This document shows positions 1,885-18,254 of a stretch of 19,983 nucleotides of DNA, piece by piece. The notes beneath the pieces were generated by a model that saw only the letters and a program-made list of their open reading frames with translations, was not told the DNA's origin and did not search any database. Within the stretch, counting starts at the first letter, position 1, and each line of letters opens with the position of its first letter. The DNA is from a virus (lineage: Duplodnaviria > Heunggongvirae > Uroviricota > Caudoviricetes). The position numbers and the translations under genes were made by a program. The stretch is from IMG/VR virus record IMGVR_UViG_2529292923_000021, positions 1 through 19,983 of that record. The stretch is one strand, 5' to 3'.

Positions 1885-3974
1885 CCTCCGGAAGTCAGCC
1901 AGGGGTTAACATCGTCAGTTACTGTTTTCTTCCGTTTTTGTTTTTTAACAGGCGTGGATACCGGTTCCGGTGAGGATGACGGTTCGGTACTGTCCGGGAC
2001 ACACTCCAGCCAGGTTTCCCGGCTCGCCCACTCCGGTGCATCCGGCCAGCGGATCTTTTCGTATCCATGCAGAATGACCAGAGCCTCGGCATACACCATC
2101 AGGTCAAAAGCTTCGTTGGCACCGCGACCCGGCTTACTCCATTTCCCGTCACGGCTCCGCTCTTCATACGTCAGTTCGTCGTAAAACCAGCTCCCCAGCC
2201 AGTCAGGGAAATGCACATAGCCGGGACCTGGCGAGTCACGCCATAACGCGTTATTTACCCGGTCTTTCAGTGCATCCGTCTGAAGAAGCCAGAGCGGCAC
2301 ATCACCTGCGGCCTGCGCCCGTCGGCCCGTTCGTCCGGTGTTATCAGGGAATGTACGGGTGATCAGTTTTGCGCGCCGGATGCTGTCGCCCTTAAACAGG
2401 TAAATACGTTTACCAAGGCCATCACGACGGCAACGACGCCAGAATTTATAGGCATTATCAGTGACCCCGTCTTCACCGCCGGAGTCCACCGCCATTGCCA
2501 TCAGTCGCATTTGTTGAGAAGGATCGGAGGCCAGCGGCCAGCTTTTATGAAAAACATCTGTCAGCAGGACATCCCAGTCTTCCGGATAGCTGGCCGGATC
2601 AATTCGCTGGCTCTCCCCGTCGCTGTCACCGCGCAATGACTGCGTGATGTTGTAACGATCAATAATCCAGCGTTCGCCACGGCTGCCATAGCCCGTTACC
2701 TGAACCACAAAACGGCGATGACGTCCCGCCTGCACATCCACTGTCGCCACAAGAAAATTAACGCCATCCGGCACACTGCGGGAATGAACTGGCTCTGCCC
2801 GCTGCTCAAGCAGTTCACTTTTTCGTTGCTCCATGCTGGCGCGGGGAAGATAAGGTAATCCCCAGTCGGTGTTGATAACCGCCCTGAGTGTTTCTTCACT
2901 TCCTGTCGCTTCATACTCCTGTTCTGCAGTCAGTAATTTGTAAACCAGTTGCGCCCAGGTCTGATACGCAGCAGCTGGCCCTTCCATCCAGAAACTGGCG
3001 ATACGGGAGCGGCGCGGTTCACCGGAAACGTTGCCGTTACAATCAATGACCTGACCTTCACGCAACCAGACTCCTGCACTATTGAGCTCACGCTTTTTCT
3101 CCGCAGTGATAATGCCGCTGCAGTGCGGGCAAAGTAGATACGCCGCCTCACTGGCTTTAAAGGGATCCGGTTCATTACGGTAGCCGGTCATGGCATCCAT
3201 GGCTGGCTGAAAATATTCACCGCAGTGCGGACATGGCCAGTACCAGCGGCGGCGGTCACCACGATTGTAAAGGGAAAGAATACCAGTCGTCGGTGGCGCT
3301 TCATGAGGCGACTTACGTCGCCATTTGCTGTCGCAGATGTCACGTCCCGGCGAGCTCTCCACCAGAGTCATCCCGGAGGACATAAATGTGGTGGTACGTT
3401 TTGAGGCCAGGGAGAAACCATCACCCTCGCTGTCGATATTCTCCGGAAAACGGTCGTAATCGGTTAAGGCGACAAACCGGTAATCCGACGACGACATAAT
3501 GTTGACCGAGGGCCAACCAATTTTAAGGAACGAGCCATCCCTGAACGTCTTATCATGGACATTATTGTCATTACGACGTGGACTCATTCTTTTCTTTACC
3601 GCCGCACTGCTTCTGAACGTTCTGTCGAGGCGCTTTTTTGAATGCTCGCGGGCCTTATCTTCGGTCATCTGCACAACGAGCATGTCCGAAGGATCGCAAA
3701 CGATGGTATAGACAATCCATCCATCGATCAGACCAATGGTCTTCCCTGTTCGCGCAGGACCAACAAAAATCACCGCATCGTATTCACGCGATGCCAGGCA
3801 GTTCATGGGCTCAATGATGTAGGGTGTCAGTTCAGGATCCCATGGCACCGAGTTACCAGCCCCCTTGGGAACACGCATGAATTTTTTAACAGCCTCCGAA
3901 ATCGGCATGCGACGTGGTGGAGAAAATCCTGCCGATATGTCCCTTCCCAAATTTCGGGCTGATGAAAAACCCAT
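1875..3974 (-). CDS. Terminase large subunit (lambda gpA family)
   Basis: 699-aa ORF with a P-loop-like GPARTGKT motif and a CPHCGE zinc-ribbon-like motif as in lambda gpA; follows the small terminase subunit. Confidence 0.85.
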   Translation of the reverse strand: MGFSSARNLGRDISAGFSPPRRMPISEAVKKFMRVPKGAGNSVPWDPELTPYIIEPMNCLASREYDAVIFVGPARTGKTIGLIDGWIVYTIVCDPSDMLVVQMTEDKAREHSKKRLDRTFRSSAAVKKRMSPRRNDNNVHDKTFRDGSFLKIGWPSVNIMSSSDYRFVALTDYDRFPENIDSEGDGFSLASKRTTTFMSSGMTLVESSPGRDICDSKWRRKSPHEAPPTTGILSLYNRGDRRRWYWPCPHCGEYFQPAMDAMTGYRNEPDPFKASEAAYLLCPHCSGIITAEKKRELNSAGVWLREGQVIDCNGNVSGEPRRSRIASFWMEGPAAAYQTWAQLVYKLLTAEQEYEATGSEETLRAVINTDWGLPYLPRASMEQRKSELLEQRAEPVHSRSVPDGVNFLVATVDVQAGRHRRFVVQVTGYGSRGERWIIDRYNITQSLRGDSDGESQRIDPASYPEDWDVLLTDVFHKSWPLASDPSQQMRLMAMAVDSGGEDGVTDNAYKFWRRCRRDGLGKRIYLFKGDSIRRAKLITRTFPDNTGRTGRRAQAAGDVPLWLLQTDALKDRVNNALWRDSPGPGYVHFPDWLGSWFYDELTYEERSRDGKWSKPGRGANEAFDLMVYAEALVILHGYEKIRWPDAPEWASRETWLECVPDSTEPSSSPEPVSTPVKKQKRKKTVTDDVNPWLTSGGWL

Positions 3975-3982
3975 TATTCCTC

Positions 3983-4510
3983 CTAGAGACTCTCTCCTTC
4001 CTCATCAGGAATTAATTCAGCAGCACAAGCCTCGTAGGATTTTTCCTGAAGAGTGTATCGCAGGTCATCAATGGCCTGCTGTACAACGCCAACGGCCTGA
4101 GGAGTCAGGGCGCAATCGCGTTCAAGAACATCCGGAATTGTCTCCAGAACCTGGACGACAGCCTTTCTCATGGACGAATAGACGATGACTACTTCATCAA
4201 CGGGGATGAGTTTTCGCTGCTCCTTTTCCAGCTTGATCCTTTCATTTTCAGACTGGTACCAGTCCTTTCTCTCTTTCGGCTCCATACGGGATGGATCATG
4301 AACAGAGTCTGCTGCCTCATGCTTCACACTAAACAGGGCTGGCCCGACATGCTGCAGGGCGTAAACGGGGTTCCCCCTGACAGTCGCAGCCACAGGAGTG
4401 TTGGCCGCGAGAAGCCGTTTTTTTACTGTGTCCCGGTGAAGCCCAAAGGCCTCAGCGATTTTAAAAACACTCCAGTAATAAGCATCACCGATCCCGCTCA
4501 CATTTGACAT
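3983..4510 (-). CDS. Terminase small subunit (Nu1-like); ORF open to 4540, preferred start at the third ATG (MSNVSG...)
   Basis: About 175 aa, immediately upstream of the large subunit. A GGAG lies 6 nt upstream of the ATG at 4510-4508; the first ATG at 4540 has no Shine-Dalgarno sequence. Confidence 0.65.
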   Translation of the reverse strand: MSNVSGIGDAYYWSVFKIAEAFGLHRDTVKKRLLAANTPVAATVRGNPVYALQHVGPALFSVKHEAADSVHDPSRMEPKERKDWYQSENERIKLEKEQRKLIPVDEVVIVYSSMRKAVVQVLETIPDVLERDCALTPQAVGVVQQAIDDLRYTLQEKSYEACAAELIPDEEGESL

Positions 4511-4540
4511 AAGCAACTCCATCTGGCAGGTGAAAATCAT

Positions 4541-4760
4541 GTTTATTTATATATTTCAATTAATTGTAAACTGGTCTAATGACAGGGAGAAAAAAATATT
4601 GTACAGGTAAAAAGAGAAATAACTTTTAATTATCAATAAATTACCAAACATGCTGCCGCCGCCATGGAAATGCAAAAACTAGCCTTTTTCCGCGACGCTC
4701 CCGCCCCGTGGCAGGCCACCCCACCGGAAGGACCCGCCAAAATGAGAGTGATTATCACCA
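4541..4760. other. Candidate cos / packaging-site region
   Basis: Non-coding stretch between the lysis cassette and the small terminase gene, where lambdoid cos sits. It is AT-rich with A-tracts (IHF-like context) and has a GC-rich core CATGCTGCCGCCGCCATGG that loosely resembles the lambda cohesive end GGGCGGCGACCT. Confidence 0.25.
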
Positions 4761-4973
4761 TTGCTGATGAATAAATTGATGAAAATCATTGAAACGCCTT
4801 TCAGCAAGATAACGGCGACGGTCGTTGTTGAACTCCGTAGCTCTGCTACTAAGGTTAAAAGCATGGCCATCTTTTGCCACCGGCAAATCTTCAATGGATT
4901 TCCCCTGCCGGTTTTTTATTCCTCACATTATCGCAGCCCCTCAGTGAAGGGCTGCTGTAATGCCTGCTCTTAC

Positions 4974-5336
4974 TCAGTAACGACCGCGCCTTCCGGTAAT
5001 TTCATACCGGCAAATACCGGACAGCCCGGGGATCGTTATCTGCAGCTGGTTAGCCAGGGAGTTAATCTCAGCGACCAACACTGGCTTCGTATAGCGCCAT
5101 GCCGCCAGCCCTTGTCCACAGAAGCTCGCCATATCTTTTTTCTGATCAAACTCATGACACTTCATATTGAGCTGCGCACTTAAGCTGTTGCGATGCTGAA
5201 GTTCTCCGGTGAAGTAGTCATCCAGGACTTTATAGGCTGCATATTTAAATCCGGGGTTTAGCCATGCTGCATAATCATAAGCAACAAACTTCCCGCCATA
5301 TGTTCCACCGTGTACACCGCGCTCAGTAAAAACCAC
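4974..5336 (-). CDS. Hypothetical protein with a KilA-N-like C-terminal motif, apparently lacking the N-terminal half of that domain
   Basis: 120-aa ORF starting 21 nt after the Rz stop. Residues GGTYGGKFVAYDYAAWLNPGFKYAAY resemble the conserved GGTWVHPxLAxxFAxWLSPxF block of KilA-N domains (recalled from memory). Confidence 0.4.
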   Translation of the reverse strand: MVFTERGVHGGTYGGKFVAYDYAAWLNPGFKYAAYKVLDDYFTGELQHRNSLSAQLNMKCHEFDQKKDMASFCGQGLAAWRYTKPVLVAEINSLANQLQITIPGLSGICRYEITGRRGRY

Positions 5337-5357
5337 AGATTCGTGTTTTTTCTCCAG

Positions 5358-5825
5358 CTACTTAATGCGCTGGGTGCGGATATATTCCTGCGCCCCTTCC
5401 AGTTGCTTCTGCATCGTCATCAACCGTTCTCTGAGGGTGAAATAATCCCGTTCAGCGGTGTCTGCCAGTCGGGGGCTGGTTGCATTATCCATGCTGGTGG
5501 GTCCGGTGGCTTCACGCACGGCTGCGGAGCAACTGGCATTGACCCGCAGGCGCTTACGACCAGCGGCAACATCAGCGCGCAGAGTTTCATTTTCAGTTTT
5601 CGCATCGGCTAACTCCTTCGTGTATTTTGCATCGATCGCAGCAACATCACGCTGACGCTGCTGCATGTCAGCGATGGTGGCGGTCGCCTGCTTCAGCTCA
5701 CTGACTTTTTTATCACGCTGTTCTTTGTAGGCGATGGCGTTATCACGGTAATGATTAACAGCCCATGACAGGCAGGCGATAATGCAGATAACCAGAGCGG
5801 AGATAATAACGGTTACCCTGCTCAT
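5358..5825 (-). CDS. Rz: Rz i-spanin (inner-membrane spanin)
   Basis: Translation [34 protein letters not shown]... is near-identical in pattern to lambda Rz. Start ATG overlaps the endolysin stop (ATGA). ORF track extends 4 codons further upstream to 5837. Confidence 0.9.
5420..5605 (-). CDS. Rz1: Rz1 o-spanin lipoprotein, embedded in Rz in another frame
   Basis: 61-aa proline-rich ORF ([30 protein letters not shown]) with a lipobox-like LVVSAC, matching lambda Rz1; fully nested within Rz in a different reading frame. Confidence 0.85.
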
Positions 5826-6319
5826 TGTTGCCCCCACAAACAGACTTCACGCTCAATCTCGCGGCGAGTCATCAGCCCTTTCCATTGCTTACCGCCAGCG
5901 TATGTCCAGCGCCGTAGCTGATCACATGCGCCTTTGATATCGCCCTGGTTTATTTTGCGAAGAAGCGTCGATGTTCTGAAATTGCCAGCGCCCACGTTGT
6001 AAACGAACGAGTAAAGAGCGCCGCGCGTTGTTTCCGGTATATCGACGTTGATGTACGGGTTAATTTGTCTGGCGACCGTGGCAAGGTCTTTATTCAGGAG
6101 GGCTTTGCATTCTGCTTCGGTATACGTTTTACCGAGCATAATGTCTTTTCCGGTGTGCCCGTAACATACAGTCCATACACCAACGATATCTTTATATGGT
6201 ATGTAGCTGACGCCTTCCAGACCATCGTTACCACTTGGGCCAGTGATTAACACAGATGCTATAGCAATAGCCCCGCCACCAATAGCCGCAGCAACGGCTT
6301 TTCGTAATGATGGAGGCAT
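5822..6319 (-). CDS. R: SAR endolysin (phage 21 R21-like lysozyme)
   Basis: 165 aa with a Gly/Ala-rich N-terminal signal-anchor-release segment ([18 protein letters not shown]) followed by a lysozyme domain; directly after the pinholin with an overlapping start and stop. Confidence 0.9.
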
Positions 6320-6534
6320 TATTCACCTCTCGCAGCCTTACGCTTGTCTTCTCTGATTTTGAAGTACAGATTTGTCAGGTAAGTCAGAAAGCCCAGAACC
6401 AGACTTCCCAGCACACCAATCGCAGCCCACTGTGACGGACTGACCTGATCAAGCCACTGTAAAAACCAGTAGCCAGCACTACCAGCGGATGTTCCGTAGG
6501 CAATGCCAGTAGAGATTTTGTCCATTGATTTCAT
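6319..6534 (-). CDS. S: Pinholin / antiholin (phage 21 S21-like), dual-start motif Met1-Lys-Ser-Met4
   Basis: 71-aa [34 protein letters not shown]... with two transmembrane segments and a charged C-terminus; matches the S21 71/68 dual-start arrangement, first gene of the lysis cassette. Confidence 0.9.
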
Positions 6535-6858
6535 AGCAACGCCTCCGCCAGTAACGGATTGCGTAGTTCTTATATTGGGAAGGGGAAAAAAGAAGGCCGC
6601 AGCGTAACTATCACTAATAAATTCAGGACAGCCAGTGGCTACGGCTCAGTTTGGGTTGTGGCGGCCGGAATCGAACCGGCTTCCATCGGTGCGCTGCCGA
6701 TTGCAGTACGCGCGGCGGTCAGCTATATGACTAGTATTTTCACTATCGCCTATCTGCTAGCTCGCCATTGAGCTTCACCACAACGATAAGAGCACTGCGC
6801 GGCACCTTTCACCAATTCCGCGAGGTCTGCGGGTTCAATGCTCTTACCTGTTGTGCAG

Positions 6859-6895
6859 AAAAAAAACCACACGGCAGCGAGTTTAAGCTGTGTGG
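6859..6895 (-). terminator. Intrinsic terminator on the minus strand (hairpin followed by T8)
   Basis: On the minus strand, GCCACACAGC...GCTGCCGTGTGG forms a stem with a perfect 6-bp CCACAC/GTGTGG core, followed immediately by eight T residues (plus-strand A-run 6859-6866). Confidence 0.45.
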
Positions 6896-6998
6896 CGAAG
6901 TTACCTCTCTTCACCAAGTATTCGGTAATAAAATAACTTGTGGTGTTCTCGTTTTTATGCCGATAAAATAAACGGTCCACTTTCAAATGGAGCGATTC

Positions 6999-7919
6999 AT
7001 GATTTTTCTCAGAACTGAAAACGGCATCGAGAAACTTGAAAACTGGGAGGAAATTATATCCAGACCAAACTTTGTCACCACTATAGACAAAGGAGTTCAA
7101 CAACTTGAGGAGATAATTGGTTACTACAAATTTAAAGAAGAAATCCACTGTGGTCTAACTGGTTGCAACCAACCACATCAAATGGGTTATATTGTAAAAA
7201 CATCTAGTGGCATTGAAACCAACATCGGAAATAAATGTGGTAAAAACGAATTTGGTGTGGAATTTGGTGAAAACGTTCTTAGTTTCAATAAATTTATGCA
7301 ACTCGAAACCAATCGGGAAATTATTAGCACCGCAAAAAGTAAATGTGAAGCGTGGCAAAAAAATATTGAAACGATACGAAATATCAAACCCACAATAGAT
7401 TATCTATCTTCTACCATCGAAAATAGTAAAAATTCCAATTACTCCGGAAGACTTGGTGCTACAGAAATTCGTTTTTTGACCAAGAACCAGACAGGCCTTG
7501 TAACCCTTTCTGAAGTGGAAACTGATAAGAATACCAAAACAATTCTGTTCGCAATGAATGAACACATGCGCGAGTCTGGAGAGGCAATAAGTGAATTCTA
7601 CATAGGAAAAGTATCATTTAGTCATGTTCTTTTACCAGAAAACAATCTTCGTGATTTTTTTGTTGCGCTCAAAGAAGATCTAAAAAAAATTCAGTGTATT
7701 GATCTACAAACAGCCCCAAGCCCAGAAATTTCTAATGTTGCCAAAATTGCCAGTTCAATCGAAGAACGAATCAAGCGATTAAAAAAACTGAAACATGAAG
7801 CCAGTAAATTCCTAACTAAAAAAAATCTGCGTCCCATCGCAAACAAAATAAAATACTCATCGACAGCGGATGAACTTGAATTCCATAATTTCGAACGCTT
7901 TTTAAAAGGGCTGAAATGA
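6999..7919 (+). CDS. Hypothetical protein, AT-rich accessory gene antisense to the late operon; function unknown
   Basis: 306-aa ORF (310 aa from the upstream ATG at 6987) with GGAG 6 nt upstream of the ATG at 6999. Base composition is visibly AT-rich compared with flanking late genes. Sits between Q and the holin on the opposite strand and ends at a hairpin terminator. Contains a small Cys/His cluster (HCGLTGCNQPH...CGK); no recognisable catalytic motif. Confidence 0.7.
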   Translation: MIFLRTENGIEKLENWEEIISRPNFVTTIDKGVQQLEEIIGYYKFKEEIHCGLTGCNQPHQMGYIVKTSSGIETNIGNKCGKNEFGVEFGENVLSFNKFMQLETNREIISTAKSKCEAWQKNIETIRNIKPTIDYLSSTIENSKNSNYSGRLGATEIRFLTKNQTGLVTLSEVETDKNTKTILFAMNEHMRESGEAISEFYIGKVSFSHVLLPENNLRDFFVALKEDLKKIQCIDLQTAPSPEISNVAKIASSIEERIKRLKKLKHEASKFLTKKNLRPIANKIKYSSTADELEFHNFERFLKGLK

Positions 7920-7939
7920 TAAAAGCCCCGAAAGGGGCT
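7917..7939 (-). terminator. tR'-like intrinsic terminator downstream of the late promoter; also closes the plus-strand gene
   Basis: AGCCCC-GAAA-GGGGCT hairpin at 7924-7939. On the minus strand it is followed by TTTTATCA, a good U-tract; on the plus strand the trailing T-tract is weaker. Confidence 0.55.
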
Positions 7940-7978
7940 TCTATCAAAATCATTTACGCATTATTCCGCATGCTTAAA

Positions 7979-8008
7979 AGAATACATGACAGATTCGGAC
8001 AAAATCAA
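7979..8008 (-). promoter_or_regulatory. Candidate late promoter pR' (minus strand) just downstream of Q
   Basis: On the minus strand, TTGATT (-35, 8008-8003) and TGtATTCT (extended -10, ending 7979) are separated by 18 nt. Position relative to Q and the downstream hairpin fits the lambdoid pR'-tR' layout. Hexamers picked by eye. Confidence 0.3.
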
Positions 8009-8033
8009 GTGCAATGTCGCAAAAACCCTAAGC

Positions 8034-8864
8034 TTAGTTCACATCATCACCAAAACTTGTCACATTCTGAAAAGCAATATCGGCCTTACGCTCTTCCTGG
8101 TGGCAAATGTCAACCAGAGAATCAAGAAACGGCTTCCAATTACGCGTCCATGTCCTGACATGTAGCTCGGGTATCCGCTTCAGTACAACTTTATATACTG
8201 TGGTAGACGGTACCGTGGAAAATCCATTTCCGCTGCAACGTTCGCAGATTTTAAACACTGGCACACCACGCTCGCTTGTGGCTTTGCGGTCCAGTACCTC
8301 TCCCTTTCCACCACAACGACACCTGGCACTTATCACTCCCTTCCCTTTACATACATCGCAAACGACTGGTACAACTTCCGTTACCTCTGTCCATTTCTCC
8401 CAGTCTGACGGTCGAACAGCACGGGAGCGACTGGCCCAATATGGTGCTTTACCCCATGGGTATGAAACCTTACGAATGACCTGCTTACGGGGTGTTAGTC
8501 CGGTACCACTGCAACTATGGCATGTTACGCTGGTGTCCGCCGATCGGGAATACTCAGCAAAAGCAAACTGCGCCAGTACCAGCATACACCAGCCAAATTC
8601 ACCACCAGCTGCTTTACGCACATTCTTCGGTGCAATTTCCATCGCGTGACGCGCCAGCGCTTGGACTGCCATCTGCTCATCAGTCTTGCTGATACCGGCC
8701 TTCCCGAAGAAGGCCGCCAAGCCAAACCGTTCACGATTGCTGGTGGTACCAATAGCCGCCATAACATCGGTGCCTGTAAGACGTTCCGGAGAGGTTCCTT
8801 TCACATCGTCGCCGATATACATTCCCTGAGGACTGAAGTATTTTAGCGATGCCTCAAGCTTCAT
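8034..8864 (-). CDS. Q: Late-gene antiterminator Q (long Q82/Qin-type)
   Basis: 276 aa with several CxxC zinc-finger-like clusters (CHSCSGTG, CDVCKGKG, CRCGGKG, CERCSGNG); located immediately upstream of the late promoter/terminator and lysis genes. Confidence 0.65.
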   Translation of the reverse strand: MKLEASLKYFSPQGMYIGDDVKGTSPERLTGTDVMAAIGTTSNRERFGLAAFFGKAGISKTDEQMAVQALARHAMEIAPKNVRKAAGGEFGWCMLVLAQFAFAEYSRSADTSVTCHSCSGTGLTPRKQVIRKVSYPWGKAPYWASRSRAVRPSDWEKWTEVTEVVPVVCDVCKGKGVISARCRCGGKGEVLDRKATSERGVPVFKICERCSGNGFSTVPSTTVYKVVLKRIPELHVRTWTRNWKPFLDSLVDICHQEERKADIAFQNVTSFGDDVN

Positions 8865-9718
8865 TATTCACACTCCCCAACCAGATTAAGAATAACCGCC
8901 GCGCCATTGTCTTTCATATATTCGCCCTTTCCGCTTGCCAAAAACCAACGACACACCTCCACTGCTTCAGCCCGTGTCACCGGTTTGATGGTCATCAGCA
9001 ATTTTTCAAGGTAGCGCTCGCGGTCATATACCGATTCGTGATGCTCAGAGTAACCATACTCATCGCCCTGTTCTTTAGACGCAGTGTGGCGAACACTGTA
9101 GAGCCAGTCCCAGTAAACAAACTCACGAACTACGTCTGACAATGTATGAGGCTCTGGCAGTACATCACGATAGCCATCAACATATGCACGACGCTGATCA
9201 TCAATTTCATTCATACGGATGCCATCAATTCTGCCCGCTGTCTTCTCGGCTGCAGTCCAGCCCCAGAGATGATCGTCGATAAATTTCTGGGAAGACTTGA
9301 TCACTCGCTCGGCTTCCACATCTTCGAGTGCTGCTTCATAGCTACCAAACGTAGCCCTGACTGATGTTGCTTTTTTGATATTCTCCCGGGCGATCCTGAT
9401 TGCCTGTGCCGGGTTATCCATGCCGATGGTACCGAAAGCAATCTGGAAAGGATCACCACCATTCGCCAGCAGATAACGCGAATAGCGTTCCTGGGCCTCT
9501 TTTGGGGAAATTTTAATTTTCACCAGCGCAGCCTCAGCATCCAGATGTGCGGGTTCGTTCAGACGGATAACCTCCAGCACCCAAAGATAAGCATCAGTCT
9601 GCTTATGCCCGGTGATTCTCCGTTGCTCTGGCAGGGGCTTGATGTTTGCGAGGGCGGAGCTGTACGCTGCCGTCGGGATGGTGAATAGTGCTTTATGTTC
9701 GTTGTTATCAGTACGCAT
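8864..9718 (-). CDS. Hypothetical protein (284 aa), function unknown
   Basis: Long ORF with a start overlapping the Q start region, in the position of nin/replication genes; no motif recognised. Confidence 0.65.
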   Translation of the reverse strand: MRTDNNEHKALFTIPTAAYSSALANIKPLPEQRRITGHKQTDAYLWVLEVIRLNEPAHLDAEAALVKIKISPKEAQERYSRYLLANGGDPFQIAFGTIGMDNPAQAIRIARENIKKATSVRATFGSYEAALEDVEAERVIKSSQKFIDDHLWGWTAAEKTAGRIDGIRMNEIDDQRRAYVDGYRDVLPEPHTLSDVVREFVYWDWLYSVRHTASKEQGDEYGYSEHHESVYDRERYLEKLLMTIKPVTRAEAVEVCRWFLASGKGEYMKDNGAAVILNLVGECE

Positions 9719-9843
9719 TACGCAACCGCCTTTTTCTTATGGAAAACCAGCTCTCGAACCTGATCACCGTTCATGAGCATATTGTTGAAATCATCGTGAT
9801 CCGGCCAGTACACGCTCACGCGCTGCAGGTCATTCTTTGCCAT
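9718..9843 (-). CDS. Possible small ORF (41 aa) overlapping the helicase stop; alternatively the tail of a frameshifted longer protein
   Basis: ATG at 9843-9841 overlaps the helicase stop; the tail MAKNDLQRVSVYWPDHDDFNNMLMNGDQVRELVFHKKKAVA looks protein-like. The same frame is open back to 10038. Confidence 0.3.
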   Translation of the reverse strand: MAKNDLQRVSVYWPDHDDFNNMLMNGDQVRELVFHKKKAVA

Positions 9844-11224
9844 CAGATTGGCATGAGCACATTCGCAAGCCGCAGCCAGCCCGGTGGCGCTGATAAAATT
9901 TGATCTGACTCCACCAGGACTGTTTCTCTGCCTTCGTCGACTGATGCTGATTTTTACCCAGCTTATTAAGTTTGCGGCTAGTGTCAGTATCAACGTCTTC
10001 ACCTCGCAGCGGCTTGTGTCCACATTTCGGGCAAACATAGACGCCAGCTGGCTTCATGTAGTGGCATTGAGGGCATTCATGTGGCAGTTTTTCGGCCCGT
10101 TCCTCAACTGCGCGGCGCGCGCTTTCCTCCATGCCATCAGACTTACCGGGAAGATCGTCGTACTCGATTGAATCCGGATAACCCAAACGGTGCACGGTGC
10201 CGCTGTGATCGAAGATAAGGCAGGACGCTTTACCCGGTGCGGTGCGCAGCCCACGCCCGAGTGCCTGCAACCAGCGAATTTCGCTTTTTGTTGGCCTGGC
10301 GTAGATGATGCAACGAACGTCACTATCGAATCCGGCTACCAGAACGCCCACACTAACGATGATTTTCGTTGCACCGGTTTCAAAGCGGTGAATGATGGTC
10401 TGGCGCTCATCTACCGGAGTGTCGGCGGTCATTACCTCAGCGTTAACACCCGCCAAGTTAAACTGGATTGTCAGATAATTGGCGTGAGCTACGTTGACGC
10501 AGAAAGCGATGGTAGGTAGATCCCGACCATTCTCCAGCCAGTTCTGTACGATGTCGCCCACCAGCGTAGAGCCGCACATGATTTCAGCCAGCTGTGTTTC
10601 GTTGTAATCGCGGCCGTACTCAAGCGAAGATGTGGTTTTAACACCTTTCAGATCCGGCTTAGTTGGCGCGTAAAATTCGTATTTACTCAGATCGCCACGC
10701 TGGATTAACTCGCCGATGGTGGTCGGCTTAATCAGTCGGTCATAGTATTTGCCCAGGAACGGAGAAAACGGAGTACCCGACAGGCCAATCACCTTTACGC
10801 CTTTGCCGCGCAGACGTTCGATATCCTTCAGGATGCGTTTTTTACGCAGGTGCGCTTCGTCGATAATCAGCAGATCGATATTTTCAGGAAAAACACGACG
10901 AATAAGCGTGTCAGCGCTGGCAATCTGAATTTTCCGGTCCGGATCGTAGTTCGGGTGATCCGCCCAGATATAACCGATTTCATCTCCAGGTAAACCATAC
11001 TGCACGAACCGATTAGCCGTCTGACCAATCAGGATGGTGTACGGAACACAGAACAGAACACGCATACCACGGCTGACAAAACCAGCAACTATGAAGGCTG
11101 CCAGACCCGTTTTACCGCTACCTGTTGGCGAGTAAACCATGAAGGTGTCGTTTGCCTTCCAGTCACGGCGCAACATGTTTAGCGCTCGCTCCTGTGCAAA
11201 ATTCGGCGTGATTGTCAGCTGCAT
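9830..11224 (-). CDS. Superfamily-2 DEAD/DEAH-box helicase with C-terminal zinc ribbon
   Basis: Walker A SPTGSGKT, motif II IIDEAH, motif III SGTP, motif VI QALGRGLR, and a C-terminal CPQCHY...CPKCGH zinc ribbon. Confidence 0.85.
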   Translation of the reverse strand: MQLTITPNFAQERALNMLRRDWKANDTFMVYSPTGSGKTGLAAFIVAGFVSRGMRVLFCVPYTILIGQTANRFVQYGLPGDEIGYIWADHPNYDPDRKIQIASADTLIRRVFPENIDLLIIDEAHLRKKRILKDIERLRGKGVKVIGLSGTPFSPFLGKYYDRLIKPTTIGELIQRGDLSKYEFYAPTKPDLKGVKTTSSLEYGRDYNETQLAEIMCGSTLVGDIVQNWLENGRDLPTIAFCVNVAHANYLTIQFNLAGVNAEVMTADTPVDERQTIIHRFETGATKIIVSVGVLVAGFDSDVRCIIYARPTKSEIRWLQALGRGLRTAPGKASCLIFDHSGTVHRLGYPDSIEYDDLPGKSDGMEESARRAVEERAEKLPHECPQCHYMKPAGVYVCPKCGHKPLRGEDVDTDTSRKLNKLGKNQHQSTKAEKQSWWSQIKFYQRHRAGCGLRMCSCQSDGKE

Positions 11225-11274
11225 TGTGCTGTCCCCGCAGTGATGAGATAATAATTTTGTGATGTGGTTTTCAT
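11215..11274 (-). CDS. Putative 19-aa upstream ORF / leader peptide overlapping the helicase start
   Basis: GAGGAGG sits 5 nt upstream of the ATG; MKTTSQNYYLITAGTAQCS ends 10 nt inside the helicase ORF. Confidence 0.25.
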   Translation of the reverse strand: MKTTSQNYYLITAGTAQCS

Positions 11275-11335
11275 GGATTCCTCCTCACATGGCTGGTGGT
11301 CTCCCCAAAGGCTGCCAGCCCCTTTCCGAATCAAC

Positions 11336-11704
11336 TCACTTAAATTTCGTCGCACGAATAACGTCAATTCCGTTCTCGCTATATCGAAGAGGGTGCTTAC
11401 CATCCCTGAGCAGGACAAAGCCTGACATCCCCTCAGGTAGCTGAGCCAGCTTCATCAACGAACGGTTGCGGGGAGACTTCTTATCGACCTCAATGGCACA
11501 CTGCTGGCCGTCTGATGATGTAACCAGGCAATCAATAAACCCTTTACGACCACCGCTAATGCTGATGCTGAAATTGCGTTGCAGATGGTATCCCTGAGAC
11601 TTGATTTTTTTCTGCATCACATAATCGAAAACGACTTTGTCATCGGAGCGAATGAATTGCTCTTCCAGGAGAGTGATTAAATTTTGCTTCAGGTCTTCAC
11701 TCAT
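11336..11704 (-). CDS. Hypothetical protein (122 aa) with a possible PD-(D/E)xK nuclease-like motif
   Basis: GFIDCLV followed 13 residues later by CAIEVDKK resembles the D...(D/E)xK arrangement of the restriction-endonuclease fold; this is a weak pattern match only. Confidence 0.55.
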   Translation of the reverse strand: MSEDLKQNLITLLEEQFIRSDDKVVFDYVMQKKIKSQGYHLQRNFSISISGGRKGFIDCLVTSSDGQQCAIEVDKKSPRNRSLMKLAQLPEGMSGFVLLRDGKHPLRYSENGIDVIRATKFK

Positions 11705-11953
11705 ACTTTTTTATCCATCTTGTACTAGCTTTCTGGTACAGCCGTTTTTTCAGGGGTATCCCCCTTTAGATCGAGATCTACCTAACCTATGTACCCGTCT
11801 GTTGGAAAAGCCTGTTCCAGTGCTTCGCACTAACACACGGGCACTCCTCCCCCTCCCCTCCTCTCATTGAATTTTGTGCGTACTCTTTAACTAGTACAAA
11901 AATGCAATGAGATTTGGGATTCAGCCACCGGACACCTTTAAGCCCGGTACCAA

Positions 11954-12247
11954 TCAGGAGCGCGATTGCGTTCCTGCCAGGGGCGGCTGAGTTGTATACC
12001 CCTGTAAAGCTCTGCCCTGATTTCTCACAAACAAGCGGAGCCTTGTGTTTGCTTCGTGCCTTGCTCTGTTCTCCTTGCGGAATGAAACAGGCTCAGCGTC
12101 AAAAGTGATTTCGTATACCTCCGCATATTTCAGGGCGACCTTCCGTCTCAGTGACGGAGGCAGCCCCTGTAACTGCTGCTGAATCCACTCTTCGTCTGCC
12201 TGGCAGTGCCTAGATGGCATCTCTGTCTGAACGTAATTCTGGGACAT
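11954..12247 (-). CDS. Hypothetical protein (97 aa), in the cII position
   Basis: ORF begins 13 nt after the cro-like stop on the same strand; no similarity to lambda CII recognised. Confidence 0.5.
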   Translation of the reverse strand: MSQNYVQTEMPSRHCQADEEWIQQQLQGLPPSLRRKVALKYAEVYEITFDAEPVSFRKENRARHEANTRLRLFVRNQGRALQGYTTQPPLAGTQSRS

Positions 12248-12259
12248 ACAAGCCCTTCA

Positions 12260-12532
12260 TCATTCGTTTTTCATAACTGCCGCATTTGTGGCTGTGTGAC
12301 TTCTACGTAACAAATCAGGGATTGCATCTTCAGGATGGGGATAAAGATCTGGTCTTAACCCATGAGGAGTAACTTTCCATTCCACAACTTCACATACACG
12401 CAAGACGAAACGAGCAGGAATTGTTCTTTTTGAAAACCATTGGTTCACAGCTTGCGGCGTAACGCCTAGATTTCGCGCTATGGCATTTTGTGCAATTAGC
12501 TCACGAAGTGCGTCGTAATCATTTCCTTTCAT
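12260..12532 (-). CDS. cro: Cro-like HTH regulator (YdaS/Cro family)
   Basis: 90 aa with an HTH (NLGVTPQAVNQWFSKRTIP) and a C-terminal LRPD motif typical of YdaS/Cro-family proteins; divergent from the cI-like gene; GGTGGG upstream of the ATG. Confidence 0.7.
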   Translation of the reverse strand: MKGNDYDALRELIAQNAIARNLGVTPQAVNQWFSKRTIPARFVLRVCEVVEWKVTPHGLRPDLYPHPEDAIPDLLRRSHTATNAAVMKNE

Positions 12533-12666
12533 CGCAACCCACCAATCTAAACTTTATAAATTCAAGATTACATCAAGTTTAAATTAACATGCAAGTCCAC
12601 AAAAGATCGAATACACTAAAATCAAGTAAAAATTTATCGAAACCAAGTAACCAGCAAGGATTAACA
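12533..12666. promoter_or_regulatory. cI/cro divergent promoter-operator region (OR-like)
   Basis: 134-bp AT-rich intergenic region between divergent repressor genes; the motif ATCAAGT recurs at 12572-12578 and 12621-12627. Confidence 0.5.
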
Positions 12667-13356
12667 ATGAAAAACTTAAAGAGCACTGAAAATCGAATTA
12701 CAAAGCTGCTACAGGAGAAAGGCTGGAGCCAAGCAGAGCTGGCCCGAAAATTAGGTGTCAGCGCACAGTCCGTACAGTACTGGACAACAGGAAAAACATT
12801 TCCAAGGGGAAACCGGCTTGCCCAGTTATCCGAAATAAGTGGTTATCCGCAATCGTGGTTTTTAGGAGAAATCACGTCACGGCAGTTCTCTTCAAAGGAA
12901 AAACATCAAGCAAGAACTGACAGTGTGGTCTTTAACGTGCTCGATGTTGAGTTTAGTTGCGGCGATGGAACACATGTCCGTGGGGACTTTATCGATGTAG
13001 TTCGCTCAATCGAGCTTGATCCTGAATATGCCCGTCGCCTTGTTGGCAATAGAGCATTTCAAAACATAGAGATTGGTAACGCAAGAGGAGATAGTATGGC
13101 TCCAACAATAGCCCCAGGAGATCTTCTTTTTCTCGATAAAACAGTGAATTACTTTGATGGTGATGGCATTTATGCTTTTTGCTTTGATGGTGAATGCTAC
13201 GTCAAAAGATTACAAAAGATAGGAAGTAAAATCATGGTGTTATCTGATAACCCAAATTACCAATCCTGGAGCATTGAAAAAGATGCTCTTGAGCTGCTTT
13301 ATATCCAATCGAAGGTAATCTCATCTGTTCCATTCAATATAAATAGATTTGGTTAA
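12667..13356 (+). CDS. cI: cI-like repressor (HTH-XRE plus S24 LexA-like peptidase domain); alternative upstream start at 12589
   Basis: N-terminal HTH (GWSQAELARKLGVSAQSVQYW), C-terminal S24 autoprotease motifs (GDSMAPT with the catalytic Ser; VKRL with the Lys). AAGGA lies 8 nt upstream of the ATG at 12667. Confidence 0.9.
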   Translation: MKNLKSTENRITKLLQEKGWSQAELARKLGVSAQSVQYWTTGKTFPRGNRLAQLSEISGYPQSWFLGEITSRQFSSKEKHQARTDSVVFNVLDVEFSCGDGTHVRGDFIDVVRSIELDPEYARRLVGNRAFQNIEIGNARGDSMAPTIAPGDLLFLDKTVNYFDGDGIYAFCFDGECYVKRLQKIGSKIMVLSDNPNYQSWSIEKDALELLYIQSKVISSVPFNINRFG

Positions 13357-13418
13357 TTATTGATTATTAAAGAAAAATTTACAAATCAAGTAAAAGAGAC
13401 GCAGAAATCAATTTTTTC

Positions 13419-13448
13419 TTGACAACTCCATCAATCAAGATCTAACAT
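13419..13448 (+). promoter_or_regulatory. pL-like early promoter
   Basis: TTGACA (13419-13424), 18-nt spacer, TAACAT (13443-13448); flanked by ATCAAGT-type motifs at 13385-13391 and, inverted, 13465-13471. Confidence 0.45.
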
Positions 13449-13450
13449 CA

Positions 13451-13497
13451 CACCATCAATTTTGACTTGATTTATTGTTAATTTTAAATTGATGGTG
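13451..13497 (+). repeat. Perfect 12-bp inverted repeat in the 5' leader of the first early gene
   Basis: CACCATCAATTT (13451-13462) and AAATTGATGGTG (13486-13497) are exact reverse complements; the 3' arm contains the GGTGA Shine-Dalgarno of the ORF starting at 13503. Confidence 0.8.
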
Positions 13498-13502
13498 ATT
13501 CA

Positions 13503-13931
13503 ATGAAAGATCTGACAACCGCTGAGATATCGAACTTAAACCACTTCGAAAAAGAATCCTTTGCATTAAATATTGCAAATCTGGTAGGTGCTGCTCGTAC
13601 TTTCCATTTAATTGATGGTGATCGCTCTAAAGAATTGGGGTTTGAAGTCATGGAGTTTGTTCATGAATACGCCCTGTCTGCTACTTATCCATTACATAAT
13701 CACATAATCAACAAACAACCAAATAAAATCCGCACCCAACGCGAAGCCTGCGGCTTAACAACCGCCGAACTCGCCAGGCTGCTCGATCTCGATGAAGAAA
13801 TTATCATCCAGTGGGAAAGCGGAGAGTACGAACCAACCATCAGCATGCTTATCCCTCTGGCTAATGTTCTTGGCTGTGATCCAATGTTGTTATTGACTGA
13901 TGCTTATAAACAAAATCAGGAGGAAGCATAA
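13503..13931 (+). CDS. HTH-XRE domain protein (142 aa) with an N-terminal extension of unknown function
   Basis: C-terminal HTH (CGLTTAELARLLDLDEEIIIQWESGEYEPTISMLIPLANVLGCDPMLL); first gene after the pL-like promoter. Confidence 0.75.
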   Translation: MKDLTTAEISNLNHFEKESFALNIANLVGAARTFHLIDGDRSKELGFEVMEFVHEYALSATYPLHNHIINKQPNKIRTQREACGLTTAELARLLDLDEEIIIQWESGEYEPTISMLIPLANVLGCDPMLLLTDAYKQNQEEA

Positions 13932-13932
13932 G

Positions 13933-14124
13933 ATGAAAATGTTCAAAGGCCTTACCAACGAACCGGAGACAGCTTTTCATCACATTGCCGTACTGCTTGA
14001 AGCGGGGTTAATCATTTCGGCTTCCGGTGATGAAGAATGTGATGAACTTTCGGATGATATCTTTTTACTGGCACAACAATACGCCAAAAGCGCATGCGAT
14101 GCATTTAAGGAGCAAAGAACATGA
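13933..14124 (+). CDS. Small acidic protein (63 aa)
   Basis: AGGAAG 7 nt upstream of the ATG at 13933 (ORF track gives a non-ATG start at 13900); acidic composition. Confidence 0.55.
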   Translation: MKMFKGLTNEPETAFHHIAVLLEAGLIISASGDEECDELSDDIFLLAQQYAKSACDAFKEQRT

Positions 14125-14312
14125 TAACTCCATTAAATATTCTTGAGGAAGTGGCGGCACAAATAAAAGAGAATACATCAATGCTTGAATTTATATTTAA
14201 GAATTCGCCCGACCAAGGAGAGACAGACGATTATTTATGCTGTCTCATTCGCTCCATGAATAAGACCTGTGAAATGGCTTACGAGTATATAGAAACACTA
14301 CGCAACGAATAA
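14121..14312 (+). CDS. Small acidic protein (63 aa)
   Basis: ATGA start/stop overlap with the preceding ORF; acidic composition. Confidence 0.55.
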   Translation: MITPLNILEEVAAQIKENTSMLEFIFKNSPDQGETDDYLCCLIRSMNKTCEMAYEYIETLRNE

Positions 14313-14394
14313 AGAACACTCAGTAAAAAATCACACATAAAAACATGACGGCCTCTGGTCGTGGATTTCCACAACCAGAAAATAATGGTGATGC

Positions 14395-14493
14395 ATGAAA
14401 AATAGAAACGCTTATAAAACCGCATTATTAATGGCTAATGCAGGATACTGGTCAGTTGCAATACTGTTTCTCAGAAAAGCATACGGGAAATAA
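14395..14493 (+). CDS. Putative small hydrophobic peptide (32 aa)
   Basis: GGTGA 4 nt upstream of the ATG; MKNRNAYKTALLMANAGYWSVAILFLRKAYGK has one hydrophobic segment. Below the ORF-track length cut-off. Confidence 0.3.
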   Translation: MKNRNAYKTALLMANAGYWSVAILFLRKAYGK

Positions 14494-14496
14494 CAA

Positions 14497-14856
14497 ATGG
14501 CATGTACAACCATTTATAAAGATCGTCGCCGCATGGTAACAGCGGCACTCCGGCGGATGCAACGTAAAACAGGTAGTAATCTGCTCGTCGTTGACCTCCC
14601 GGACGGAGAAATAACAACGATAGAAATAACTGAACAGTTCATGAACCAGTTGTTATTACGATTTGAGGGTCTTACCCGTGTTGAATATGGACGGACGGAA
14701 GGAGAAGCAACAATCCGTACCGCATACCAGAATGCCATCGGTATTAATCAACACACGGAATATCTCACTGAATCAGGGAAACTGATAGTGGACGGCCTTT
14801 TAAAAGAGGTTGTTGACTACGTAAAAGAGAAATATATCAGTGGAGGAATTAACTGA
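14497..14856 (+). CDS. Hypothetical protein (119 aa)
   Basis: ORF in the early operon, tightly packed with its neighbours; no motif recognised. Confidence 0.55.
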   Translation: MACTTIYKDRRRMVTAALRRMQRKTGSNLLVVDLPDGEITTIEITEQFMNQLLLRFEGLTRVEYGRTEGEATIRTAYQNAIGINQHTEYLTESGKLIVDGLLKEVVDYVKEKYISGGIN

Positions 14857-15065
14857 TGTCTGATTTATCCCCTCTTATACACGAAAAAGTACAGATCATT
14901 ATGACGATTGAAAATGGTCAGGTAATAAATACCCGTAAAGTTCACAATAACGAGATGATTGCCAGCATGGATACCTTCTTATGGATAGCAAAGAAAGCGG
15001 GATATCAGGTAATCGCTCCTGATCTGGAGGAAATCGGTGACATTAACAGCAATACGAATTCCTGA
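14856..15065 (+). CDS. Hypothetical protein (69 aa)
   Basis: Start overlaps the previous stop (ATGA-type coupling). Confidence 0.5.
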   Translation: MSDLSPLIHEKVQIIMTIENGQVINTRKVHNNEMIASMDTFLWIAKKAGYQVIAPDLEEIGDINSNTNS

Positions 15066-15258
15066 GTGGGTGCACCTGCAGGCGGTCCGTGTTCTCCGCC
15101 AGTTCAGAGCCAGACGAATTCATCCCTGTCGTATGCACGGCTCCGGAAACCTGAGTCTGAGGGTTAATCGCCGCTGGCGGCTGCTGTCCCGAGACGGCGG
15201 CCAGAACTGGGAAGTAATGAGCCATGAACGATACAGCAAAGTTAAGGACCGGAAATGA
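15037..15258 (+). CDS. HigB/RelE-superfamily toxin-like protein (73 aa, GTG start); possibly truncated at the N-terminus
   Basis: IHPCRMHGSGNLSLRVNRRWRLLSRDGGQNWEVMSHERY resembles the HigB core LHPLKGDREGYWSITVRANWRITFQF...DYH (recalled from memory). GGAGG lies 6 nt upstream of the GTG at 15037. Locally GC-rich compared with its AT-rich neighbours. Confidence 0.4.
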   Translation: MTLTAIRIPEWVHLQAVRVLRQFRARRIHPCRMHGSGNLSLRVNRRWRLLSRDGGQNWEVMSHERYSKVKDRK

Positions 15259-15288
15259 ACAATAAACCTTCAAACCAAAAGGAGAGTA

Positions 15289-15870
15289 TTGATGATTAAT
15301 TCAACCATTACCCCTGAACCTACATTAACAGGCATCCGTTTTGGTAATCGAATTATTGGTTATTCAACTGCGGTTCGCCAGATCGACAACGGTAACTATG
15401 ACAAACGAATTCCGGACGGGCTCGATCTGATAGCTTGCATTATGGAAGGGATTGAAAGCGGCTGGTTTATGCCGTGTATTGAAAAACAAATCATCCTATG
15501 GCGCTGGCTTGTTGTCGCCGTGTTCATTGCTGAGGAGCAGGAGAAGAACGGGACTGTCGATGTTCAGAATGACAAGGGCGGCGTAGATACAGCCGTTGTA
15601 TACACAGGAAAACCCGGTTCAATCAGCATTTATCCATGGTCTGAGCGCTTCGCGCTCGCTAACCATATCGAGGCGGGCGCAATTGAAAAATACGGGCCTG
15701 ACGTTGGCCAGCAGATGGCGCTGCGTATGTATCAGGACATGGTTGTAACTGACGAGAAATGCGGATTCAGGCTGTCAGCGATGGGCCGGGAGGGACTCAA
15801 CATACTACATGACAGCTTCATTGAACTGATTCAGAAAGACGGTATGCCAGACATGCCGGTTATGCACTGA
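15289..15870 (+). CDS. Hypothetical protein (193 aa)
   Basis: AAGGAGAG Shine-Dalgarno upstream of the ATG; no motif recognised. Confidence 0.65.
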   Translation: MMINSTITPEPTLTGIRFGNRIIGYSTAVRQIDNGNYDKRIPDGLDLIACIMEGIESGWFMPCIEKQIILWRWLVVAVFIAEEQEKNGTVDVQNDKGGVDTAVVYTGKPGSISIYPWSERFALANHIEAGAIEKYGPDVGQQMALRMYQDMVVTDEKCGFRLSAMGREGLNILHDSFIELIQKDGMPDMPVMH

Positions 15871-15881
15871 GGTGGACGAAA

Positions 15882-16628
15882 ATGAACATAGTAACGATCA
15901 ATAACAAACAGCTTCCGGCAGTCGAATATCGCGGTCAGCGTGTTGTGACGCTGGCGATGATTGATGAAGTCCACCAGCGACCGGAAGGAACAGCGCGTGC
16001 AGCATTCAACCGAAACCGTGAGCATTTCATCAGCGGTGTGGATTATGCCGAATTAGGTGCGGACGTAATACGTACGGACCTCCCGGAAGGAACATTCTCT
16101 AAATTTGCACCATCAGGGATTGTACTTTTTGAATCAGGTTACCTGATGTTGACGAAGCCATTCAATGACGCCCTTGCCTGGCAGGTTCAGCGCGAACTGG
16201 TTAACAGCTACTTCCGCACTCGCACACCGCTAACGGAAATCGAGATGATCGCTGCGATAGCCGCCGACGCTGTTCGTCAACAGAAGCGCCTGAATCATGT
16301 GGAAGAACAGCTCGAAACAGTCACAGAAGCGGTGGAAACCATCAAACGCGGAAATATGCGCGCCGGATATGTCGGTTATCGCCAGGTGGTCGCCAAAAGC
16401 GGAATGACTGATGCTAAGTGCCGCAATCTGGTCAATGCCTACAGCATCCCAACCGATACGCACGAATTTATGACACCAGATGGTCTTCTTTCGCGCCGGG
16501 CTATCGTGGAGCTGGAGCCATTCATGAAAGCATTTCATCAGATGATGTCAGAGGCAGAGCCACGTGGTACCCGCTGGTATCACCCGAAGATGGGGCTGTT
16601 TCAGGTGATTGGTTGGGAGGGTAAATAA
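15882..16628 (+). CDS. ORF6N-domain protein (KilA-N superfamily; Rha/antirepressor-like)
   Basis: N-terminal GQRVVTLAMIDEVHQRPEGTARAAFNRNREHFISGVDYAELG matches the ORF6N pattern QRVxT...NFNRNKERFxEGKHY (recalled from memory). Confidence 0.6.
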   Translation: MNIVTINNKQLPAVEYRGQRVVTLAMIDEVHQRPEGTARAAFNRNREHFISGVDYAELGADVIRTDLPEGTFSKFAPSGIVLFESGYLMLTKPFNDALAWQVQRELVNSYFRTRTPLTEIEMIAAIAADAVRQQKRLNHVEEQLETVTEAVETIKRGNMRAGYVGYRQVVAKSGMTDAKCRNLVNAYSIPTDTHEFMTPDGLLSRRAIVELEPFMKAFHQMMSEAEPRGTRWYHPKMGLFQVIGWEGK

Positions 16629-16966
16629 TGTCACTCATTACACAAAATTTCCGCCTCAATGCGCTGGCAAATCAGTATGCGGCGGCACTGCACAACCACA
16701 TATCCGCCACCAGCGGTGGTCATTTCCTGATTAATGTCAATGGGCAATCCATACGAGTAAACATCATCGGTGGGGTTAAAGGCATCAGGGACTTAATCGA
16801 TGGTTATGCTCTGAAGGCTATCAAAGAAAATTACCCCCAATGGGAAGCCGTTGGTATTCAACTGTTAAGCAAATGCGTTCGTGGAAACGAGCTGACGCAA
16901 AGCGGCAAAGAAATCTGGCAGAGCATGGTCAACGACATGAGCGATACCGTTATGGGGAACATGTAA
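16628..16966 (+). CDS. Hypothetical protein (112 aa)
   Basis: Start overlaps the previous stop; no motif recognised. Confidence 0.55.
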   Translation: MSLITQNFRLNALANQYAAALHNHISATSGGHFLINVNGQSIRVNIIGGVKGIRDLIDGYALKAIKENYPQWEAVGIQLLSKCVRGNELTQSGKEIWQSMVNDMSDTVMGNM

Positions 16967-17188
16967 ATGAAAATCCAATACCAGGACTATGGCGCCGTAG
17001 CGAACATCGTGATCACCAGTTCCTGCCTGACATTGCAAAAGCATAACCGCGTTGTTGATGCGGTGCTGTTTAATGTACAGGGGATCTCTGAAAACCGCAG
17101 CGGCTTTTTCTGGGTTAAGTCATCGTTGTCAGGAAAAACACGCGACATCCTGCGCGCCTACAAAATCGTACAGCGGGAGGCAAAGTGA
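16967..17188 (+). CDS. Hypothetical protein (73 aa)
   Basis: Begins one nucleotide after the previous stop. Confidence 0.5.
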   Translation: MKIQYQDYGAVANIVITSSCLTLQKHNRVVDAVLFNVQGISENRSGFFWVKSSLSGKTRDILRAYKIVQREAK

Positions 17189-17283
17189 TGAAGTCATTCC
17201 TCCTGTCCATACTGTTTAGTCTGCTGCTGGCGTCCGTCGTTTTCGGTACGCTGATTGAATATAAATTTTTAATGAATTACTGA
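17188..17283 (+). CDS. Putative small membrane peptide (31 aa)
   Basis: ATG overlaps the upstream stop (GTGATGA); MKSFLLSILFSLLLASVVFGTLIEYKFLMNY contains a single predicted transmembrane helix. Confidence 0.35.
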   Translation: MKSFLLSILFSLLLASVVFGTLIEYKFLMNY

Positions 17284-18004: not shown

Positions 18005-18008
18005 AGGA

Positions 18009-18251: not shown

Positions 18252-18254
18252 AGA

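Follow-up and report, generated by a model that had tools for sequence, protein, structure and literature searches.

Which genes stand in for the replication genes O and P of a lambdoid prophage when a helicase is encoded where O and P would be expected? The question is raised by the 19,983-nt stretch analysed here (IMG/VR virus record IMGVR_UViG_2529292923_000021, positions 1 to 19,983; hereafter the window), which is a lambdoid prophage in reverse orientation with the integrase at its right end. Between the Cro/YdaS-like gene and the antiterminator gene Q lie three open reading frames (ORFs) of 122, 464 and 284 amino acids (aa). An earlier note, made from the sequence alone, took these for a helicase-centred block in place of O and P, and saw in it either a non-canonical replication or recombination module or a nuclease-helicase cassette for defence or anti-defence. 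All three ORFs are present, but the block was misread, as the 464-aa ORF was created by a deletion and the remnant of a primase gene was missed. The block is very probably the early-right replication module of a lambdoid prophage of the Fels-1/phi467 type, a relative of the Eru1 unit of Shiga toxin (Stx) phages that has been damaged by this deletion. The proteins of 122 and 97 aa are referred to as p122 and p97, and the family of the 284-aa protein as p285; coordinates are given in Table 1.

The helicase and primase genes and the 1,122-bp deletion

When the module was compared by megablast with phage and E. coli genome collections, every close relative aligned in two pieces, spanning about 1.1 kb beyond the query. 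Mapping against E. coli F719 and phage phi467 put the segment missing from the window at exactly 1,122 bp, located between two 8-bp direct repeats, CAGCGCCA; slippage or illegitimate recombination between these repeats would have removed it. The intact order in phi467 and F719 is the p122 gene, a 552-aa DEAD/DEAH helicase, a 322-aa Toprim protein, a 285-aa hypothetical protein and the antiterminator. The 464-aa ORF is not a natural gene: its product consists of residues 1–446 of the helicase, identical to those of the 552-aa protein of F719, followed by 18 out-of-frame residues, and 106 C-terminal residues are gone. The primase is more severely affected, having lost 265 of its 322 residues, including the zinc ribbon, the DUF7146 domain, most of the Toprim domain and the DRD motif (residues 261–263). 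Its trace is still seen in ORF 9718–10038, which overlaps the helicase ORF and whose last 55 residues match phrog_510 (DNA primase). That no primase had been recognised is therefore due to the deletion, and does not mean that this type of phage lacks one; the remnant of 57 of 322 codons marks the window as a degraded member of the Eru1-like/Fels-1-type module.

What had been noted of the 464-aa protein as a helicase of superfamily 2 (SF2) proved correct, with Pfam domains ResIII, DEAD and Helicase_C, the motifs SPTGSGKT and DEAH, a CxxC-x12-CxxC zinc ribbon, and a match to phrog_16 (DNA helicase) at 4e-103. The helicase is 68% identical (over 450 residues) to Eru1A of phage TL-2011c, and the intact primase, with the domains Zn_Ribbon_Prim, DUF7146 and Toprim_3, is 57% identical to Eru1B of the same phage.

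The identical truncated 464-aa protein is encoded by two draft assemblies at NCBI, three SRA assemblies and an IMG/VR contig, and its presence in several independent assemblies excludes an assembly error. The strain of GCA_000249175.2 is one carrier of the allele. The assemblies with this allele are at least 99.9% identical to the window, and the prophage adjoins mlrA. The junction was found in none of 5,426 complete E. coli genomes, though 80 match the flanking sequence, and among 58 related viral loci (viral contigs found through p122) the deletion is confined to the window's own allele, the remaining 57 having a complete primase. Since the C-terminus of the helicase and most of the primase are deleted, the prophage most likely fails to replicate its DNA when induced; the genes for immunity, Q, lysis and packaging seem to be intact. 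The alternative is that the truncated module still works, by means of the helicase core, p122 and host DnaG, and that the deletion is a viable streamlining. This would fit the retention of all SF2 motifs and the zinc ribbon in the truncated helicase, and the occurrence of a nearly invariant allele in several isolates whose prophage is otherwise intact. It is nevertheless improbable, as even TL-2011c shows conservation of the helicase segment lost here, residues 447 to about 505 (the alignment reaches residue 498 of 506), the primase is kept in all related viral loci but one, and the junction is missing from each of the 80 complete E. coli genomes that carry the module.

The helicase is interrupted in some relatives. 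In IMGVR_UViG_648276671_000019 (locus L021, 5481–8066) it is a single 861-aa ORF with an insertion of about 309 aa between TAPGKES and CLIFDHSG, and an insertion is found at the same site in a Xenorhabdus budapestensis locus (L063). The L021 insertion begins with Cys, ends with His-Asn and is followed by Cys, which are hallmarks of inteins; Pfam detected no Hint domain in it. Within the insertion, an HNH-like motif, DRIDNNGDYEPGNLRWV, is encoded by a 253-aa ORF that runs in a different frame, and two long overlapping frames are thus open together. Inteins are typical of essential replication proteins, and to that extent the intein-like insertion was counted as support for a role of the helicase in replication.

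Relationship to Eru1, Fels-1 and lambda

A close described counterpart (Llarena et al. 2021, PMC8044961) is the eru1A, eru1B and eru1C unit of the Stx2a phage TL-2011c, which is also present in the phage of the O104:H4 outbreak. The Eru genes were proposed, from position and domains, to replace O and P in non-lambdoid Stx phages, and Eru1 phages are viable and inducible (PMC8044961). The unit of TL-2011c likewise occupies the O/P position, with a gene for an SF2 DEAH helicase and, after it, one for a Toprim primase of about 322 aa. Just upstream of eru1A is a p122 homologue of about 125 aa (gp29, 40% identical), and the non-coding sequence has the same G tracts and an identical box of 21 nt. 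The two differ in the third gene, which is Eru1C (NinB/DUF1367) in TL-2011c, with NinB/NinG in that slot, and p285 in the window, where no NinB homologue was found in the block. They also differ in the type of Q and in the deletion of the primase. Eru1 in the strict sense has been defined by more than 80% nucleotide identity and coverage to eru1A–C of TL-2011c, including eru1C (Llarena et al. 2021). TL-2011c was not returned by megablast of the module against the phage collection, and identity to eru1A–C was not computed directly, so the module probably falls under the 80% criterion. It is probably best regarded, from sequence comparison, as Eru1-like rather than Eru1. Phage phi467 is absent from the Eru typing tables.

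Two other phages are also close. The order repressor, cro, p97, gap, p122, helicase, primase, p285 and Q is identical in Salmonella Fels-1 (STM0899.1n to STM0902) and in the Stx2f phage phi467, to which nucleotide identity is 84% and 99.5%, respectively. The Fels-1 genes are annotated as 'putative helicase' and 'putative bacteriophage DNA primase'. The modules of both phages are intact, while the window is without the 1,122 bp and, unlike phi467, without stx genes.

In the window, phi467, F719 and TL-2011c alike, the module lies between cro and Q in place of O and P, which bears out the suggestion of a non-canonical replication module at this position. The comparison of gene neighbourhoods that had been recommended gave the same picture. 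In all 58 viral loci the homologues are found inside prophages, within the early-right operon between cro and Q, and consist of a constant string of p97, non-coding region, p122, helicase and primase, around which cI, cro and the type of Q are freely swapped. At the level of annotation, the homologues are consistently named helicase or primase and p122 matches an initiator domain, while the 284-aa protein matches no replication factor.

p122 and O-type initiators

A possible PD-(D/E)xK motif had been noted in p122. The core fold is indeed present in a confident structure model (predicted local distance difference test, 86.5), with elements in the order alpha-beta-beta-beta-alpha-beta expected of the nuclease core. 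The motif itself departs from the canonical form: strand 2 carries D58 and strand 3 carries E72-x-D74, and these residues are conserved, but the third residue is Asp and not Lys. This arrangement resembles D94, E111 and E113 of BamHI, and the top structural relatives of p122 cleave RGATCY sites.

In a profile search of 1.84 billion representatives, the p122 domain turned up both as small free-standing proteins and in the middle of proteins of 330–494 aa. At the N-termini of these fusion proteins, some of which are named 'replication protein', are the origin-binding domains Phage_rep_O, DUF6291 or a winged helix; the match to Phage_rep_O is 6e-37 in P0168 and 1e-32 in P0169, the latter being one of those named 'replication protein'. 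In Providencia phage PSTCR7lys, the 'DNA replication protein O' contains the p122 domain at residues 173–283 (E = 2e-25), and its gene sits between cro and a DNA helicase gene. Polyubiquitin sequences that also matched the profile were rejected as spurious. By these comparisons, p122 appears to be a free-standing copy of a nuclease-fold domain from the middle of O-type initiators. Its occurrence there places p122 in replication initiation, where it probably acts with the helicase, in loading it or in nicking or melting DNA.

The same evidence bears on the proposal that the block is an embedded defence or anti-defence cassette, in which a PD-(D/E)xK protein and an SF2 helicase act on foreign DNA. 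The nuclease fold of p122 is compatible with such a role, and its structural neighbours include Bax1 (the partner of XPB), HamA of Hachiman, Card1/Can2 and NucC; in PADLOC, moreover, the helicase shows weak similarity to PbeA, type IV restriction enzymes, DpdF and Cas3. These PADLOC matches are non-specific, however, being partial, limited to generic RecA-like domains and not above 52 bits, while p122 gave none and p285 a single weak partial match to PbeC (E = 0.0015, 15 bits). The genes are always found between cro and Q, accompanied by a complete primase in 57 of the 58 loci, they substitute for O and P in viable phages, and the p122 domain is part of O-type initiators. A cassette of this kind is thus most improbable.

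Twelve plasmid records, namely K. pneumoniae 'plasmid p5' (NZ_CP076549, locus L081) and 11 like it, most of them 37–41 kb, are whole prophage-like genomes that carry the module without p122. Such genomes have been repeatedly deposited as non-mobilizable plasmids, and may be extrachromosomal or spontaneously induced phage DNA.

Function of the module

The transcript from pR of an intact module would carry, in order, p97, the non-coding region, p122, the 552-aa helicase, the 322-aa primase, sometimes an accessory gene, and Q. The helicase would unwind the phage DNA and the primase would make primers. A phage with its own helicase and primase would not need the recruitment of host DnaB and DnaG that is carried out by lambda O and P. 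The module shares with O and P the slot in the early-right operon and, presumably, the task, and elsewhere the p122 domain is fused behind Phage_rep_O. It differs from them in bringing a helicase and a primase instead of recruiting host DnaB, and in having its putative origin outside any O gene. No Phage_rep_O or P-type helicase-loader domain was matched by Pfam in any ORF of the block.

While the homologies, the gene order and the deletion are observed, several points weigh against assigning the block to replication. As in the papers on Eru, the function of the module is deduced from homology, domain content and position. Among characterised proteins, the helicase is nearest to RadD, which acts in repair and is not a replicative helicase. 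The deletion allele persists in several isolates, indicating that it is tolerated, and host DnaG or a co-resident phage could substitute for what it has lost. Lastly, a Klebsiella lineage possesses p97, the non-coding region, the helicase and the primase but no p122, which is thus dispensable for this type of module.

The relationship to RadD leads to a further explanation, that the genes form a recombination or repair unit (a RadD-like helicase with an Hjc/NucS-like nuclease) comparable to the recombination genes of the nin region, replication being provided elsewhere or by the host. The helicase scores 94.8 bits against the RadD family (NCBIfam NF053632), far below the cut-off of 720 bits, and neither RadD (YejH) nor the XPB-Bax1 pair, both repair proteins, has an associated primase. 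In contrast, a dedicated zinc-ribbon/Toprim primase is encoded in the same operon in all 57 intact loci, and the p122 domain occurs in O-type initiators. Nor did Pfam and PHROG annotation reveal any further replication genes, whether between cI and Q or in the rest of the window. A repair unit is accordingly an unlikely description of the block.

p97 and the conserved non-coding region

The limits originally set for the block (8864–11704) were too narrow, as the unit extends upstream to a conserved non-coding region (11705–11953) and the p97 gene (12247–11954). In each of the 58 viral loci p97 immediately precedes the non-coding region on its upstream side, even though cI and cro vary from locus to locus by exchange, and a homologue is present, unannotated, in TL-2011c. 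The protein has a conserved basic stretch, FRKENRARHEANTRLR. It has no match in Pfam or PDB and no detectable relatives of characterised function, and it does not resemble the fused initiators in their N-terminal parts.

The central part of the non-coding region is 80–92% identical in four of five enteric comparisons and 67% identical in the fifth (L065), the flanking genes being 62–85% identical. Its TAGATC core is invariant across 25 diverse sequences. The double G tract is kept in E. coli, Salmonella, Klebsiella, Yersinia, Buttiauxella, Xenorhabdus and TL-2011c, and a box ending in TAGATC is found about 68–70 nt beyond it in the same taxa, from E. coli to Xenorhabdus, and in TL-2011c. In the stem of the first hairpin, which has the invariant loop CTTAAAGGT, 91.7% of cells pair and five of seven pairs show compensatory changes; its covariation score was reached by none of 500 shuffles, and its wobble pairs are standard on the sense strand. 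The region as a whole folds on both strands (z = -4.5). RNAalifold found no consensus structure among 25 diverse copies, and Xenorhabdus and TL-2011c lack the closing stem of the enteric lineages. On either side of the core, at fixed positions, are near-palindromes of the form GTAC-N10-GTAC; in single loci they do not exceed shuffled sequences, and what is suggestive about them is confined to their conserved position and shape.

A paired element of the put or nut kind was considered and rejected, because the candidate motifs (G tract, TAGATC box, CTTAAAGGT loop) are each single-copy in the window and none occurs in the pL operon. No sigma-70 promoter was predicted in the non-coding region, no known plasmid origin matched it (plasmid matches were to prophage-like elements without origin annotation), and a literature search found no paper on the origin of Eru1-type phages. 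The plus strand, antisense to the replication genes, has a terminator-like hairpin with T6 after it at 11720–11741, immediately upstream of where p122 begins. The conserved GTAC-N10-GTAC element and the A tract fall at the same place, so an antisense transcript could end there.

The non-coding region is the likeliest candidate for the origin, or for another cis-acting element, of the module. A fuller scenario, in which p97, the non-coding region and p122 form an undescribed phage origin-and-initiator set, is put forward tentatively, as one possibility that is itself rather unlikely to hold. Early-right transcription through the double G tract would open the DNA (an R-loop is one example), p122, being BamHI-like, would act at the invariant TAGATC box, and the SF2 helicase would be loaded there. 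Synthesis by the Toprim primase would start on opposite strands, at the pair of GTAC-N10-GTAC hairpins on the flanks. The box is changed to TAGGTACCGATC in the Klebsiella lineage that has no p122, the only such lineage seen. The idea that p122 recognises TAGATC is weakened by PSTCR7lys, in which the O protein carries the p122 domain and yet no box of this type is found nearby.

A possible architectural parallel is offered by the IncQ plasmid RSF1010, a replicon self-sufficient in helicase and primase, which encodes the RepA helicase, the RepB' primase and the RepC initiator. Its origin, oriV, combines tracts rich in G/C and in A/T with two hairpins for priming, ssiA and ssiB, one on each strand. 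The flanking near-palindromes of the module resemble this layout in architecture only: there is no sequence homology, the helicases belong to different superfamilies, and neither iterons nor a RepC-like protein were recognised in the module.

p285, neighbouring genes and layout of the window

The 284-aa protein, in which no motif had been recognised, gave no Pfam family either. No protein family was found for p285, nor any match to a known replication factor; its model is poor in residues 16–107, and structural matches are to generic helical folds only. p285 is gone from about one third of the 58 viral loci, and elsewhere is shortened to its C-terminal part or replaced by NinB/NinG, which makes it an accessory gene of the nin-region slot. 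In the window the gene has a 3-nt in-frame deletion (LDAAEAAL to LDAEAAL), the sole difference from loci L005 and L006 over the stretches in common.

Lysis and packaging genes follow downstream of Q. Between Q and the holin gene, on the opposite strand and in an island of low G+C content (36–42%), is a 310-aa gene (6987–7919, plus strand) that constitutes a moron. Its product matches phrog_7003 and had no match in Pfam, NCBIfam or PADLOC; the same slot holds stx2f in phi467 and four tRNAs in E. coli F719. A second helix-turn-helix (DicA-like) gene adjoins the repressor (13503–13931, plus strand), and the left operon has ParE-like and ORF6N-domain genes, both assignments being based on Pfam marks on the near-identical locus L004. 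A search of the whole window for Rfam families gave no match, and a tRNA scan found none.

Table 1. Position and strand of the module's genes, sequence elements and boundaries, as numbered in the window
Feature	Position	Strand	Remarks
cI-like repressor	12589–13356	+	
Cro/YdaS-like gene	12532–12260	-	early-right operon
p97, 97-aa protein (phrog_852)	11954–12247	-	first gene of the module; PHROG match 2.5e-41
Conserved non-coding region, candidate origin or cis-acting element	11705–11953	-	249 nt
Hairpin with invariant loop CTTAAAGGT	11927–11948	-	just after the p97 stop codon
Long hairpin	11862–11912	-	
Double G tract	11844–11863	-	
GTGCGAAGCAC mini-hairpin	11820–11830	-	
Box CATAGGTTAGGTAGATCTCGATCT with two GATC	11768–11791	-	
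A tract	11744–11751	-	
GTAC-N10-GTAC near-palindrome	11722–11739	-	
p122, 122-aa protein	11336–11704	-	PD-(D/E)xK restriction-endonuclease fold; D58, E72 and D74 conserved
464-aa ORF (truncated helicase)	11224–9830	-	
Native part of the SF2 DEAH helicase, residues 1–446	9887–11224	-	Pfam, PHROG, identity to the F719 helicase
Zinc ribbon of the helicase	10022–10075	-	within the native helicase part
Out-of-frame tail of 18 codons, HRAGCGLRMCSCQSDGKE, and stop	9830–9886	-	out-of-frame reading of the primase gene's 3' end
Deletion junction, single 8-bp copy of CAGCGCCA left	9885–9892	-	
Primase remnant, last 57 of 322 codons and stop	9718–9891	-	57-residue suffix in common with the intact protein
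284-aa all-helical protein of the p285 family (phrog_6204)	8864–9718	-	optional gene of the nin-region slot
Q antiterminator	8034–8864	-	downstream boundary of the block; Pfam Antiterm, 2.6e-52

Implications

The block does not represent a new system. A helicase-primase unit of this type was already noted in Fels-1 and has been named Eru1 in Stx phages, and the window carries a broken copy of it. What appears to be new, judging by the sequence comparisons, is limited to the link between p122 and the O-type initiators and to the conserved non-coding region. The non-coding region, the always-linked p97, and p122 as a free-standing piece of an O initiator are concrete and cheap targets for mapping the origin of a module type that occurs in the Stx phages of two outbreak strains, O104:H4 and O103:H25. 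Schemes that type prophages by their replication genes will encounter decayed alleles such as this one, and a prophage unable to amplify its DNA would be expected to yield fewer particles and less late-gene cargo.

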